Virus record (IMG/VR): IMGVR_UViG_2690316318_000022
Strand: one strand, 5' to 3'
Source of the DNA: a virus
Lineage: Duplodnaviria > Heunggongvirae > Uroviricota > Caudoviricetes
DNA length: 21,121 nucleotides
Shown here: one piece after another, positions 4,683 to 10,764 of the stretch
Position numbering within the stretch: position 1 is the first letter of the stretch
Layout: each line of letters starts with the position of its first letter
Position numbers and translations under genes: made by a program
Notes under the pieces: model-generated
Database searches by the model: none
Told to the model about the DNA's origin: nothing
What the model saw: the letters and a program-made list of their open reading frames with translations, nothing else

Positions 4683-5105
4683 TTATGCCGCCGAGCAGCT
4701 CCTACGCAAAGTCCTGATAGCCTGAGGCTTTGACTGAACCGACTGATCCATTTCGAGCACCACATCCAGCATGGCTAAGCAACCGTCAATAAATCCCTCT
4801 GCCGCCTGAAGCCTCTTCAGAACGTGGGTGTGAGATACGCCGAGCTTCTCACCCATCGCCCTCACGGGCATGGCCTGGACGTAATGCCACTCAAGGAGCG
4901 TGCACAGATACGGATCTTTTTTCTTCAGGCAGCTCATAGCGGAGTTGATGATAAGACCGTCATTGTCACTGCATTTCAGCCTTCCAGACTGCGTCGCGGG
5001 TAGCAGATTCTTAAACCCGGCTGCAACAGGAGGAAAGTAGACGCTACCACCTTCACTCGCTGCCCAGCCACCCCAGCGCTCTAAAACCTGTTGAATATTA
5101 CGCAT
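4683..5105 (-). CDS. Q: Late-gene antitermination protein Q (phage 82-type Q family)
   Basis: 140 aa. N-terminus MRNIQQVLERWGGWAA and the central DLL..Y....M.....G.KLG. pattern match the Q antiterminators of 82-like lambdoid prophages as I recall them. Position between the replication and lysis modules is canonical. Confidence 0.8.
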   Translation of the reverse strand: MRNIQQVLERWGGWAASEGGSVYFPPVAAGFKNLLPATQSGRLKCSDNDGLIINSAMSCLKKKDPYLCTLLEWHYVQAMPVRAMGEKLGVSHTHVLKRLQAAEGFIDGCLAMLDVVLEMDQSVQSKPQAIRTLRRSCSAA

Positions 5106-5169
5106 AGCTCTGACCTCTACGTTTTGCTACGAAAAAATTTTCTGAGAACTACGTCTGTATATCCGTGGG

Positions 5170-5425
5170 TGTGGATAACGCAGTTCCGATTCGCATATTG
5201 CATGTATCAACATGCAAAAAGTTGCTAATGCGGAGTGGAACCACCTGCCCCCACCTGGAACCACCTTTTCCTAACCTTTCCCTCAATCGACTTATATATA
5301 TATATGGGGTTTCTAGTAGAAAGGCGGTTCCAGTGGTTCCAGTGGTTCCGCCCCGCTTGCCACAAGGTCTGCAAGGTGGAACCTCCTTCTCTTTTAGGTG
5401 GTTCCGCGTGGTTCCAGCGGTTCCC
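5170..5425. promoter_or_regulatory. Putative origin of replication: DnaA box, 20-bp palindrome, iterons in both orientations, (TA)6 unwinding element
   Basis: Seen directly: TGTGGATAA (reverse complement of the TTATCCACA DnaA box) at 5170-5178; perfect palindrome TTGCATGT-ATCA-ACATGCAA at 5198-5217; TGGAACC at 5236 and 5256; alternating TA run at 5294-5305; GGTTCC at 5326, 5335 and 5344 (9-bp spacing), GGAACC at 5378, GGTTCC at 5400, 5410 and 5419. Sits at the 3' end of the primase-helicase gene. Confidence 0.65.
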
Positions 5426-7583: not shown

Positions 7584-7808
7584 TTACACCTTTTGCTGCT
7601 CTGAATTTTCGCCGTTTAATAGCCAGTCAGGATCACATTTAAGAACTTTTGCCAATTCAAGAATGAAGCCAGTACGAGTGGCACGACCGGATTCAAGGTA
7701 CTGAACAGACTGCTGGCGCATACCAACCCTTTCCGCCAATGAAGTTTGGGTTATGCCTAAGGCTTTGCGGCGCTCCTTTATACGTGAAGCAAGAGTGGAA
7801 CCGGACAT
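7584..7808 (-). CDS. cro: Cro-like HTH (XRE family) regulator
   Basis: Small HTH protein (LGITQTSLAERVGMRQQSVQYLESG), first gene of the operon divergent from cI. ATG at 7808 has a GAGGAAG SD; the track ORF starts at an upstream GTG (7823) that I consider less likely. Confidence 0.75.
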   Translation of the reverse strand: MSGSTLASRIKERRKALGITQTSLAERVGMRQQSVQYLESGRATRTGFILELAKVLKCDPDWLLNGENSEQQKV

Positions 7809-7828: not shown

Positions 7829-7895
7829 TACAGGTTTACTTGTAATTAACCCACAGGCACTCTTGTTTGTCAAATACAGATAGCTCTGTAATTAT
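7829..7895. promoter_or_regulatory. Rightward operator (OR)-like region with divergent promoters for cro (minus) and cI (plus)
   Basis: Two 16-bp sites of form TACAnn-N4-nnTGTA: TACAGGTTTACTTGTA (7829-7844) and TACAGATAGCTCTGTA (7875-7890). Minus-strand -35 TTGACA (7868-7873) with a -10-like GTTAAT; plus-strand -35 TTGTCA (7867-7872) with a -10-like AATTAT (7890-7895). Confidence 0.6.
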
Positions 7896-7917: not shown

Positions 7918-8547
7918 ATGAATCTTGCTATCCGGGCCAAAAAGCGCAGAACAGAACTCAATTTAACTCAGGTCGAAGTTGCTAAACGAGCGGGCATAAG
8001 CCAGCAGTCAATAGAAGCTATAGAGAACGGCAAAACGCTAAAACCACGTAACCTTCTTGCTTTAGCATCGGCTCTGGAGTGTGATCCTAAGTGGTTACTA
8101 CTCGGGGGTGATGTTGTCACGAATTTCAACTACGGAGCCCGAAGGGTGCCTGTTCTAAGCTATGTACAAGCCGGAGCTTTCACAAGCACTGAACAACTTC
8201 ATGAAGGCGGTGATTTCGAATACATCCTGACAACAACGGAATTATCAGAGCGTTCGTTTGCTCTCCGTATACGCGGAGATTCGATGGAGCCAGAATTTAA
8301 AGAGGGTGACATCGTTATAATTGACACTGACGTATACCCTACCCCTGGCGAATTTGTTGCGGCATGCAATGGTAGCCATGAAGCAACGTTCAAAAAGTAC
8401 CGCCCGGTAGGGATTGGCGCTAAAGGTGAGGAAGATTTTGAACTTGTTCCCTTAAACAGCGATTACCCTATTTGCCGCTCCTGGGAAAAACCTATCAAGA
8501 TTATTGGAACAATGGTGGAGCATCGCATATTCCGCCGAAAAAGATAA
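7918..8547 (+). CDS. cI: CI-like repressor: N-terminal HTH plus C-terminal S24 (LexA-like) autopeptidase domain
   Basis: HTH (LNLTQVEVAKRAGISQQSIEAIENG), candidate Ala-Gly cleavage site in VQAGAF, Ser nucleophile motif GDSMEP and a downstream Lys. ATG at 7918 has a strong AAGGAG SD; the track ORF begins upstream at 7867. Confidence 0.85.
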   Translation: MNLAIRAKKRRTELNLTQVEVAKRAGISQQSIEAIENGKTLKPRNLLALASALECDPKWLLLGGDVVTNFNYGARRVPVLSYVQAGAFTSTEQLHEGGDFEYILTTTELSERSFALRIRGDSMEPEFKEGDIVIIDTDVYPTPGEFVAACNGSHEATFKKYRPVGIGAKGEEDFELVPLNSDYPICRSWEKPIKIIGTMVEHRIFRRKR

Positions 8548-8569
8548 TCGCATCTTCGCTTCAAACAAA

Positions 8570-8591
8570 GAGGGCTATGGCCCTCTTTTTT
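8570..8591 (+). terminator. Rho-independent terminator after cI
   Basis: GAGGGC-TATG-GCCCTC followed by TTTTTT, 23 nt after the cI stop. Confidence 0.7.
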
Positions 8592-8633: not shown

Positions 8634-8677
8634 TACAAGAATACCTGTTGACTTAATTACAGGTTTACTTGTACTTT
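8634..8677 (+). promoter_or_regulatory. Leftward operator (OL)-like site and PL-like promoter directing plus-strand transcription
   Basis: TACAGGTTTACTTGTA at 8658-8673 is identical to the OR site at 7829-7844; a degenerate second site TACAAGAATACCTGTT lies at 8634-8649. -35 TTGACT at 8648-8653 and a -10-like TACTTT at 8672-8677. Confidence 0.5.
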
Positions 8678-8695
8678 TAATCCAACGAAGTAATC

Positions 8696-8707
8696 GCTCT
8701 TTAACAA
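8696..8707 (+). promoter_or_regulatory. boxA-like element (GCTCTTTAACAA) in the leader just downstream of the PL-like promoter
   Basis: 12-nt match to the E. coli rrn boxA core, from memory, about 10-25 nt downstream of the predicted start. Compare lambda nut boxA CGCTCTTA. Confidence 0.4.
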
Positions 8708-8852
8708 ACAGAACCGCGTGACAGGTAAGCCGCAGTGCTCCTGGCAAAACGAAATAGCACCCGATGGGATCGAGGTAAGCGCCGAGTCCGTATGCGTACG
8801 GTAAGCGTAGAGGACAACACCGCGATGAACTGATAAGTCACGCAAGTTGAAA

Positions 8853-8879
8853 CGCCCCGATGATGGGGCGCTTAGTTCC
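8853..8879 (-). terminator. Possible terminator for the minus-strand gene 8922..9491
   Basis: Hairpin CGCCCC-GATGAT-GGGGCG (8853-8870), about 50 nt downstream of the gene's stop. The U-tract on the minus strand is weak (UUUCAACUU), so this is tentative. Confidence 0.35.
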
Positions 8880-8921
8880 TTTAACTCTGGGTGACCGGAA
8901 GGGTACCCATGCTTAAAGAAA

Positions 8922-9491
8922 TTACTGGTTGTAAGGATCGTAATCCGTGATTGCCTTCCCCGGATTTTCATCTTCAGAAGGCAGTCGGGCCTCTAAAGCA
9001 TTTCGGTTGAACAGATAGGAAGCCCTACAGTACGAACAAACCATATTAACGGCTCGCCCAAGGCCTGGCTTAGTAACCAGTCCTTCCGCTTGCAATATAG
9101 ATTTTCTCTTTTGCTCGTAGCAATTGGGACAAATATAAACCGGAGATTGGTCAGCATCTGCAGAAAGCTTGCTGCGATAGACCAGAGTCCCCCGCATAGG
9201 CTGGTAAAGTTCATAGCTCGCCGCTTCAGCGGCCCAGTTCTCTTGCTTTACTTTCTCATTTTCCAGTTCAACAATTTTCTCCTTAGCCGCAATCAGCAGC
9301 TCCTGAAGCGACATTTGCTGCATCTGAACATCCATTAGCTTATCGAGTAAGATGTGCGTCTTCTCTTTAACTGCATAGTCTACAGTCAGATTCTGAATCT
9401 CTCTTGCTGCTCCAACCGCGCTTTTAATTGCTCCTCCCACGCCGGATAACGATTCAGTTATCCGGGAAAGAATTCCTTTTTCTTCAGACAT
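8922..9491 (-). CDS. Hypothetical protein (189 aa): predicted coiled-coil N-terminal region plus C-terminal CxxC...CxxC zinc ribbon
   Basis: ATG at 9491 with a GAGAGAGA SD-like. Heptad-like charged region (LQELLIAAKEKIVELENEKVKQENW), then CPNC...(about 30 aa)...CSYC. Antisense to the PL-driven operon, adjacent to the immunity region. Confidence 0.6.
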   Translation of the reverse strand: MSEEKGILSRITESLSGVGGAIKSAVGAAREIQNLTVDYAVKEKTHILLDKLMDVQMQQMSLQELLIAAKEKIVELENEKVKQENWAAEAASYELYQPMRGTLVYRSKLSADADQSPVYICPNCYEQKRKSILQAEGLVTKPGLGRAVNMVCSYCRASYLFNRNALEARLPSEDENPGKAITDYDPYNQ

Positions 9492-9502
9492 ATCTAATCT
9501 CT

Positions 9503-9552
9503 CTCAAACTGTAGGGGTGAAGAGATATTAGACGATTTCTCACTGTAGGGGT
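9503..9552. repeat. Two direct repeats TCTCA(A)ACTGTAGGGGT in the promoter region of gene 8922..9491
   Basis: ACTGTAGGGGT at 9508-9518 and 9542-9552, each preceded by TCTCA, 34 bp apart, between the divergent gene starts. Confidence 0.45.
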
Positions 9553-9630
9553 ACAAGGAGAACCACCTCGCCTGATGTGGTTAAAAGCAGGCACTCGATG
9601 ATATCCATGTAATTGCTGTGTGTAGTCTTT

Positions 9631-9656
9631 GCCCGCCGCAAGTGACGGGCTTTTTT
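9631..9656 (+). terminator. Putative plus-strand terminator (tL1-like) between the PL leader and the first early-operon gene
   Basis: GCCCG-(10-nt loop)-CGGGC followed by TTTTTT. Short stem, hence moderate confidence. Confidence 0.45.
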
Positions 9657-9715
9657 ATGTCTGAAAGCGCACTCGCAACAGCGCGCTCCCCGATATGAAA
9701 AAAGGAATACAACCG

Positions 9716-9865
9716 ATGAAACCTGAACACATCCATCGACTGACGGGGCGCGATGTTCTCCGTTATCGCCGTAAAAACTTCGATTTGATGACCGGTCTGG
9801 CCGTTGCCACTGCGCTCGGTCTGATCATCACTTTCATTCTCCTTGTAGCGAGGACCACAGTATGA
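9716..9865 (+). CDS. Small tail-anchored membrane peptide (49 aa); not in the ORF track
   Basis: ATG at 9716 with AAGGAA 9 nt upstream. Hand translation [49 protein letters not shown]. Its stop overlaps the start of the next ORF (ATGA). Confidence 0.45.
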   Translation: MKPEHIHRLTGRDVLRYRRKNFDLMTGLAVATALGLIITFILLVARTTV

Positions 9866-10764
9866 GTTTAGAAACCAGTCTCGAACTTAATAATCAACTT
9901 CTGGCACAACATAATGCGCTGCTTGAACGTCTTATCCGCACGATGGCATCAGGTATTGTTATGCATCCTGACACGATTTCACGAGTGCAGGAATGTCGGG
10001 ATACAGCAACTGAAACTGAAAATATGTCAGCGGCAATGACACTGGATGATCTGGAGTTCAGCGACGTTATCGCACTGGCTGTTTTCTACCCGGTAGCCAC
10101 CCCTATCACAGAAGACATGCTGCAACGTGCTGTTGCCTACCGTGATGCTGAAGGCGATAAACGAGTAGTTCAGATTGATGCTCTCGACAGCGCATTGCAG
10201 GGCGTCAAACGAGCCAGGGCACTGCATAAACCCGCTCTTCTGGACCTGTCCCGTAACATTCTTAAGTTCTGGGACGACCTGCCAACCATCGGCGAGCGAC
10301 GTGCTTTTGCCGAGCAACTACTTGATGCACCTGCAGATGGGCGTGATGAAGTTAAGCCGAAAAAGGCCAGTAACAAAGATGGAGAACGCACGGGGCCGTT
10401 TTACGTCAAAAATGTATCCGGCACAGCAGCCAGTGAACTCCACACCTTACGCAAGTTGAACGAGATGCTTAAAAAAGGCCATATCGAGATCAACCGTGTT
10501 GAGTACCTTCAGCTGCAGGAAGAATTTGCACGCAGAGACGCAGCAAATTCCAGCCAGAATAATGACGCCAAAGATGACCATACAATTGATTTCGCGGCAC
10601 TACGCAAACAAGCTGAAGGGTTGATCCTCCAGTTAGCAAAAGGGGGTTACCGGGCAGAAGCTATTGCAATTCTGGAAAAACAGGGAGCCAGGAAACTTGG
10701 TGAAGTAACGGATGAAAATCTCGCTGAAGTAATCACCCTGGCTGAAAAAGCACTGGAGGGTTAA
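9862..10764 (+). CDS. Hypothetical acidic protein (300 aa), first large gene of the early operon
   Basis: Track ORF translationally coupled to flanking genes. No motif recognised. Confidence 0.55.

Follow-up and report, generated by a model that had tools for sequence, protein, structure and literature searches.

A boxA-bearing structured leader RNA as a candidate signal for N-independent early antitermination in temperate phages of E. coli

Positions 8696-8870 of the phage DNA analysed here (IMG/VR record IMGVR_UViG_2690316318_000022; the whole stretch of 21,121 nucleotides is called the window) are likely to form the 5' leader of the early-left transcript and to act in cis as a signal for processive antitermination without N protein, using the Nus factors of the host through boxA together with a new RNA domain. 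The window, an E. coli prophage, is 100% identical over the compared 391-bp stretch to the prophage adjoining yfhL in E. coli strain A34. For early antitermination in temperate phages two solutions are known, the N protein with its nut sites and the put RNA, whose action is independent of Nus factors and is blocked by mutations in the zinc-binding domain of the RNAP beta' subunit (Y75N type in rpoC). The module formed by boxA and the domain is probably a third, previously undescribed route by which phages lacking N pass terminators. A more specific proposal, which is put forward tentatively, is that it is a protein-free nut site, in which boxA and the domain of about 135 nt might turn Nus antitermination into full resistance to intrinsic terminators and so replace N. 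The existence of many N-less lambdoid phages whose early antitermination is unknown, such as phage LLS, is a recognised gap (PMC12315714), and the module is a widespread, concrete candidate to fill it.

The strongest available evidence for 8696-8870 as an early-left antitermination signal comes, on comparison of sequences, from its exchange with put. HK022 put RNA is a cis-acting antiterminator, established by experiment and by structure, which suppresses termination of the intrinsic as well as the Rho-dependent kind without the help of a phage protein (PMC9378689). The comparison covered 54 viral loci encoding relatives of the 300-aa protein of the early operon, and the module was located by a covariance model built from it (L-numbers such as L003 or L108 are labels of the relative loci or contigs compared with the window). 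The module is found at 28 of these loci and a putL homologue, about 80% identical to HK022 putL, occupies the same place at 22; the other four are incomplete on their upstream side, and no locus has the two together. Promoter and operator types are shared between the two kinds of leader (L016 versus L146, L014 versus L108, and L076 versus L114), and both kinds precede the same RprA-like terminator and early operon. In this distribution the module and put behave as alleles of one functional slot. An earlier sequence-only reading of the region had left the choice between N-less processive antitermination, either Nus-dependent or put-like, and a small RNA. The exchange of module and putL homologue within one slot strongly favours the former, as does a spacing to the terminator that varies from 46 to 741 nt. 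The put-like version of that reading holds as far as the slot and the presumed mode of action are concerned but fails as to family membership: model R1 finds nothing in the PL and PR regions (early-left and early-right promoter regions) of HK022 at E up to 10, and blastn-short against put gives chance 8-10-mers alone.

Two side observations concern the put-type loci. The putL homologues (L108 2874-2962 and 21 other loci between L109 and L158) belong to prophages of the PolA/DUF2800 family and lie right after the same early promoters; in the 3.5 kb of sequence covered, only the left-operon copy is found. The start of the module's domain, GAACCGCGUGAC (8711-8722), is identical at 10 of 12 positions to the 5' start of the put-like RNA, GAACGGCGCGAC (L108 about 2887-2898), a resemblance that may be fortuitous, mark a recombination junction or reflect a shared contact.

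The leader follows a promoter which is read from the sequence as the analogue of PL (8648-8677, plus strand), with TTGACT at 8648-8653, an 18-nt spacer and TACTTT at 8672-8677. An operator, TACAGGTTTACTTGTA (8658-8673), overlaps it. A second copy of the 16-mer is found at 7829-7844, and 7875-7890 is a perfect palindrome of this type; these two sites sit between the cro-like and cI-like genes. The window thus has three operator matches where 0.3 are expected. Since the repeated operator overlaps the promoter, 8648-8677 is taken as a repressor-controlled early-left promoter, and the earlier description of the leader as lying after PL is borne out. Relatives show the same arrangement. A plus-strand promoter-like score of at least 9/12 is reached by 37 of 79 distinct upstream flanks (47%), compared with 22 of 790 control segments (2.8%), and the end of the -10 element lies mostly about 17 nt ahead of boxA.

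With the transcript start taken as about 8685, the rrn-type boxA GCUCUUUAACAA (8696-8707, plus strand) begins at about +12, on the transcribed strand near the 5' end. Its 12-mer, GCTCTTTAACAA, has no other exact copy in the window, and about 0.0025 copies would be expected (exact 12-mer, two strands, 21 kb). Together with the preceding C it reads CGCUCUUUAACAA, which equals the rrn boxA UGCUCUUUA followed by the first four bases of the spacer, ACAA. The boxA consensus (C/U)GCUCUUUA is matched by CGCUCUUUA at 8695-8703; the sequences used for comparison were rrn cac-ugcucuuuaacaauuua and lambda cgcucuua (PMC2724277). Among 66 distinct variants of the module the core UCUUUAACAA is essentially invariant, the exception being a C-to-U change of the second base in two CX07-type copies. 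Note that boxA sits right at the mosaic breakpoint with the immunity region. The CX07-type lambdoid copies (L005/L006 4935-5000 and 5183-5215; L102 and L103) differ in two further respects: they have an extra conserved 5' leader of about 65 nt, in which a GGCGG...CGCC hairpin stands just before boxA in the boxB-boxA order of rrn, and directly after hairpin T they have a mini-ORF (open reading frame) of three codons with a strong Shine-Dalgarno sequence (AGGAG-N8-ATG AAG NAC TAA).

The segment 8696-8870 is a discrete mosaic module, and both of its flanks vary freely. In four E. coli phages whose immunity region is different, similarity to the window begins only at 8696 and runs rightward, while some E. 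coli genomes match the immunity region and the leader and then stop at 8870. With the leader alone as query, matches that start at or before 8696 and end at or after 8870 are found in 104 of 5426 complete E. coli genomes (about 2%). In E. coli O103:H2 12009 (NC_013353), for example, the module lies at 3173657-3173836. By pattern scans it is also present in more than 90 IMG/VR contigs and in genomes of Citrobacter, Pseudocitrobacter and Trabulsiella. It always lies just downstream of an early plus-strand promoter, whatever the immunity type, and at least 79 different upstream flanks occur. A variant of about 87% identity exists in lambdoid prophages of the classical kind, with the repressor region on one side and kil/gam/bet/exo or kil/recE on the other. 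Lambda has nutL and N at this site; an N-like gene is neither annotated nor detectable at these loci. Each phage has one copy, and no second copy is found on the PR side. Looser motif scans for more distant members gave chance hits alone (L105 and L106), and an initial scan of genome contigs with the 300-aa protein gave no confirmed relatives. Only four deposited phage genomes have the module, none of them annotated there, and no description of it was found in the literature searched by sequence and by boxA and prophage topic.

The module is non-coding because its variants carry frame-breaking indels: among the 66 distinct variants, indels of 1, 2 and 26 nt alter every reading frame. Substitutions show no third-position bias. 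Between the transcript start (about 8685) and 9656 no plus-strand ORF of 20 aa or more begins with ATG; only GTG and TTG ORFs occur. No N-like protein is found among the ORFs nearby, for which three contexts were examined, nor is one annotated by PGAP, in agreement with the sequence-only reading, which had noted a structured non-coding leader with no N gene. An arginine-rich GTG ORF of 32 aa (8735-8833) was considered as a mini-N and rejected, as many variants have GTA in place of the GTG and the frame is shifted by indels. The minus-strand ORF 8657-8971 (104 aa), a hypothetical protein of PGAP in some genomes, is regarded as a mis-annotation in view of its indels and substitution pattern; the same frame in L005 is 4921-5148 (minus). 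Neither a tRNA nor a tmRNA was found. Rfam 15 gives no gathering-level match in the window and no plus-strand match over 8696-8870 even at E up to 10, and the covariance-model search suggested earlier thus places the leader in no family.

Behind boxA the RNA is predicted to fold into a domain (8712-8848, plus strand) of nested helices: P0 (8712-14/8846-48), P1 (8716-22/8837-43), P1a (8724-26/8829-31), P2 (8729-37/8818-26) and P2a (8739-42/8811-14) lead to hairpin P3 (8759-76) and to P4 (8779-82/8805-08), which encloses hairpin P5, CCGTA-TGCG-TACGG (8788-8801). Hairpin T, CGCCCC-GATGAT-GGGGCG (8853-8870), forms the right-hand end of the module. The minimum free energy (MFE) fold of the window sequence, another check that had been proposed, gives the same helices. 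In an alignment of the 66 sequences, 95% of the helix cells hold standard pairs, and pairing falls to 23-42% when the partner is slid by 1-3 columns. Nine pairs change on both sides, which accounts for 44 cells as against 8.8 in column shuffles, and none of 500 shuffles reaches 44. Plus-strand thermodynamic stability is unremarkable compared with shuffles (z = +0.55), so stability alone would not flag the region and the evidence for structure is comparative.

Compensatory changes are found in nearly every helix, all the main ones included. P0 changes from A-U to G-C in L040, and P1 from C-G to A-U in the CX07 clade and from C-G to U-A in L040. The pair 33-137 of P1a is U.G in 32 sequences, C-G in 27 and U-A in 7, and it is never unpaired. 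Several compensatory changes occur in P2 (CX07, L040, L021 and the L014 type), and single ones in P3 (L097), P4 (CX07 clade) and P5 (L024). In hairpin T, C-G becomes U-A in L100, and U.G is present in 10 variants. In the divergent L152 and L156, P3 has been rebuilt in its closing pair and its upper four pairs by four to five double changes, with the A bulge kept; these two have a different hairpin in place of P4/P5. The single-stranded parts of the domain are strongly conserved as well. The repeats, the boxA and both hairpins of the sequence-only reading are all where it placed them, and both hairpins covary in relatives. A local GCCG/UGGC hairpin proposed by RNAalifold was dropped in favour of the long-range, covarying P2 helix, and a hammerhead-like CUGAUAAG core was rejected, since its G8 is A and it has no Rfam match.

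The three GGTAAGC copies (8724, 8774 and 8800) are architectural. Their number by itself is unremarkable (four in the window versus 2.05 expected; 19 of 100 shuffles reach four), but the cluster of three within 83 nt is real. Each copy stands at a helix-(U)AA-helix junction. Because of this position, the loss of the third copy in L152 and L156, and a deletion between the second and third copies elsewhere, they are not taken as repeated binding sites; thus the repeats noticed earlier exist, but they are junctions and one of them is missing from divergent members.

P0 and P1 bring boxA within about 8 nt (4 + 4) of hairpin T. It may be speculated that the topology resembles that of a nut site whose spacer has taken up the domain. 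In most variants hairpin T has no plus-strand U-tract and is followed by CUUAGUU, UGCAGUG, GAGUGAA and similar sequences, so that the end of a small RNA, which the earlier reading had allowed for, is not found there and that option becomes less likely. On the minus strand the tail of the hairpin is GUUUCAACUU (GUUUCAAYUU), and in L010 it is scored as a minus-strand terminator by the scanner. Its GAUGAU loop is variable.

Downstream of hairpin T is a variable cargo slot (8871-9595). The window has there a gene for a 189-aa zinc-ribbon protein (8922-9491, minus strand; phrog_1244, E = 3e-39), while relatives have other genes in either orientation or an empty slot (examples are L003 4332-4600, L004 4333-4620 and L076 about 930-1260). 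Plus-strand RNA across the slot of the window is untranslated, with a C/G ratio of up to 2.5. The plus-strand cargo genes are each preceded by a repeated linker of about 45 nt, GCAGTGAATTAATCAAAGGCTTCGGGCCTTTTACTAATCCACTGA, which occurs twice in L076 and suggests cassette exchange by recombination at linkers. Two minor features lie near the cargo gene of the window: no consensus sigma-70 promoter was found for it, and a direct repeat CTGTAGGGGT(G/A) at 9509-9520 and 9543-9554, upstream of it on the minus strand, may be a candidate regulator binding site.

The slot ends in an RprA-like 3' module (9596-9662, plus strand) with a stem at 9631-9650 and U6 at 9651-9656. The terminator proposed earlier at 9631-9656 is thus real, and it is conserved. 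A 24-nt segment, AATTGCTGTGTGTAGTCTTTGCCC (9611-9634), is identical to the region preceding the terminator of E. coli RprA (comparison sequence from PMC7311995). The resemblance is confined to the 3' part; the 5' half is unrelated and differs between loci, and 9547-9660 scores 47.5 bits against a gathering threshold of 70 for the RprA family RF00034 (E = 1.6e-4). Of 90 element loci, 66 have the RprA-like module, as do the 22 put-type relatives without exception, and its terminator stem covaries. It, or a stringent intrinsic terminator, lies within 2 kb downstream at 85 of 86 loci. The RprA-like module was also seen on E. coli plasmids, at 27 places in all; the one plasmid inspected has it directly after a small coding sequence. 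It may serve as a portable 3' end of the Hfq type or give rise to small RNA derived from a 3'UTR.

No promoter-like site was found between the terminator and the first early ORF, and in the cargo-free arrangement (L010) the U-tract of the terminator runs directly into the Shine-Dalgarno sequence of the first early gene. Lacking an intervening promoter, the early operon must therefore be transcribed from PL through an intrinsic terminator. The distance from signal to terminator is variable, with 46-741 nt between hairpin T and the RprA-like element and about 0.75 kb of untranslated RNA in the window. Such variable spacing demands a processive mechanism and makes simple attenuation through local alternative pairing implausible.

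It is reported that rrn-type boxA complexes resist Rho-dependent terminators only (PMC2724277), which is why an extra RNA domain may be needed for the intrinsic one. The following course of events is envisaged. As RNA polymerase leaves PL, boxA at about +12 would recruit NusB-NusE(S10) and other Nus factors. The domain of about 135 nt would then fold, P0 and P1 setting boxA beside hairpin T, and would do what N-boxB does in lambda or put RNA does in HK022. The polymerase so modified would cross, without Rho termination, as much as 0.75 kb of cargo sequence that is untranslated, rich in C and partly antisense and would then pass the RprA-like intrinsic terminator into the replication/recombination operon. 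Transcripts of the cargo slot that lack the leader would stop at hairpin T when leftward and at the RprA-like terminator when rightward, which may insulate the slot. Such an arrangement would explain how a slot flanked by two outward-facing terminators can accept cargo while control of the lytic genes stays intact.

The module resembles several known systems and matches none of them. Like HK022/HK639-type put, it is a cis RNA that directly follows the early promoter in a temperate phage without N, its slot is the one that put has in sister phages, and its effect must be processive and independent of distance. It differs in size and architecture (about 175 nt, seven or eight helices and a three-way junction, as against about 70 nt and two stems), in having a boxA where put needs no host factors (PMC9378689), and in number, one copy per phage as against putL and putR in HK022. 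Compared with lambda nutL and N, boxA likewise comes soon after the start of the PL transcript, on the border of the immunity region and upstream of the terminators preceding the early-left genes, and its position about 8 nt from hairpin T through P0/P1 is topologically similar to boxA-spacer-boxB. Unlike lambda, the module has no N-family or arginine-rich protein. It also has no boxB with a GNRA-like pentaloop within about 10 nt of boxA; ACAG and then the 5' strand of P0/P1 follow boxA, and the only simple hairpin, T, is 145 nt away with a variable hexaloop. Its boxA is of the consensus or rrn form, not CGCUCUUA as in lambda. With the rrn leader (boxB-boxA-boxC) it shares boxA and the first spacer bases, identical over 12 nt, and a promoter-proximal position ahead of long untranslated RNA; the CX07-type copies even have a hairpin before boxA. 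The rrn leader differs in lacking a counterpart of the 135-nt domain and in its reported action on Rho-dependent terminators only (PMC2724277), whereas polymerase from the module's promoter must pass an intrinsic one.

Leaders of CRISPR arrays have a boxA similar to the rrn antitermination leader. In Bacillus, the EAR RNA of eps operons is a structured RNA of about 120 nt for which processive antitermination without a dedicated protein has been proposed. It belongs to a different phylum, has no boxA and lies within operons, unlike the module, in which no EAR likeness is found by Rfam.

Some observations weigh against reading the leader as an antitermination signal built on this domain. Replacement by put shows positional equivalence and not identical function, and the terminator could simply be leaky. 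The family is narrow, with a mean identity of 91%, and many of the covarying cells come from few lineages. In two contigs, L054 6464-6623 (-) and L089 1318-1477 (+), 26 nt between the second and third GGTAAGCG are cleanly deleted and the P4/P5 arm with them; the arm is thus dispensable, unless these copies are defective. Moreover, the minus strand fits the helices almost equally (91-94% paired versus 95.0% on the plus strand), and the minus strand of the window is more stable than shuffles (z = -2.4). Pair counts therefore leave the strand undecided; the orientation is deduced from boxA, from the promoters and from the invariant G.U pairs (31-139 and 86-115), which would be C.A on the minus strand.

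The most serious competitor, although an unlikely one, is that boxA alone acts by Nus-dependent protection from Rho, as in rrn leaders and CRISPR arrays, that the domain is an element for processing, RNase III cleavage or stability, and that the terminator is leaky. The exact match to the rrn consensus and the rut-like, C-rich untranslated RNA downstream are in keeping with it. The leader of lambda N contains a large stem with an RNase III site, and the quasi-continuous helix of about 26 bp formed by P0-P1-P1a-P2-P2a has the size of an RNase III substrate. But what is exchanged with put, which suppresses intrinsic terminators too (PMC9378689), is the whole module and not boxA alone, and the strong conservation extends to single-stranded parts of the domain. 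Somewhat less probable still is an early small RNA, trans-acting or processed, of about 170 nt stabilised by hairpin T or, in cargo-free loci, of about 290 nt ending at the RprA-like terminator. The minimal arrangement of promoter, module, 46 nt and strong terminator does resemble a small RNA gene, and the 3' module is identical to the region ahead of the RprA terminator. Against this, hairpin T is in most variants without the plus-strand U-tract that an Hfq-type RNA with its own terminator would have, up to 0.7 kb of cargo separates module and terminator, no conserved complement of the module's loops was found in the window, and the partner in the swap, put, acts in cis. A downstream complement of GGTAAGC, as in the immunity RNAs of P4 or P1, was looked for and not found.

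A function of the minus strand, whether as antisense RNA, as a 3' UTR structure of leftward cargo transcripts or as the ORF 8657-8971, is very improbable. Its fold stability, the one frame open in 63 of 66 variants and the U-rich tail after hairpin T can be cited for it. The ORF, however, has frame-shifting indels in at least seven variants, no bias among codon positions (29/23/21), 33 synonymous and 53 non-synonymous distinct substitutions, no protein family match, and both ends in non-homologous flanks. Nor does the strand have a conserved promoter; T would halt leftward transcripts before the domain, and the change of the two invariant G.U pairs to C.A counts against it. An element acting at the DNA level, either iterons bound by a protein (GGTAAGC three times) or a single-strand initiation signal, is given the slightest chance of all. 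The three direct repeats would fit iterons, and covariation is also compatible with folded single-stranded DNA. Yet L152 and L156 have lost the third repeat, one interval is deleted in L054 and L089, and the module occurs with unrelated replication modules while being tied to promoter and boxA. Cis-acting antitermination through boxA and the domain remains the preferred explanation.

If the module is indeed a protein-free nut site, it would be the third independent solution after N/nut and put, and the first to join Nus factors with an antiterminator RNA. If Nus factors and the RNA domain suffice for intrinsic terminators, this would show that the elongation complex can be reprogrammed by RNA and would provide a compact, portable antitermination part. 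Nature has supplied a swap for such a comparison, in sister prophages that differ only in having put or the module as leader.

The rest of the window is that of a temperate phage. To the left, on the minus strand and read leftward, are the cro-like gene (7584-7808), a gene for a VapE primase-helicase, a Q-type late antiterminator (4683-5105), and genes for lysis and terminase. The cI-type repressor (7918-8547, plus strand; Pfam HTH_3 and Peptidase_S24, that is, a helix-turn-helix domain and an S24 peptidase), labelled 'LexA family protein' by PGAP, is followed by its own terminator at 8567-8588 (plus strand, terminator scan), ahead of the early-left promoter. The early operon starts at 9695-10764 (plus strand) with a 56-aa membrane ORF and the 300-aa protein, followed by DUF2800, DUF2815, PolA, VRR-NUC, SNF2 and integrase genes. 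In the gap of about 290 bp between VapE and Q (5106-5393) no ORF has a PHROG family match, and the translation of a candidate ORF is of low complexity and rich in GGTACTAC; the gap may represent a further non-coding part of the window, within the operon that runs rightward from PR.

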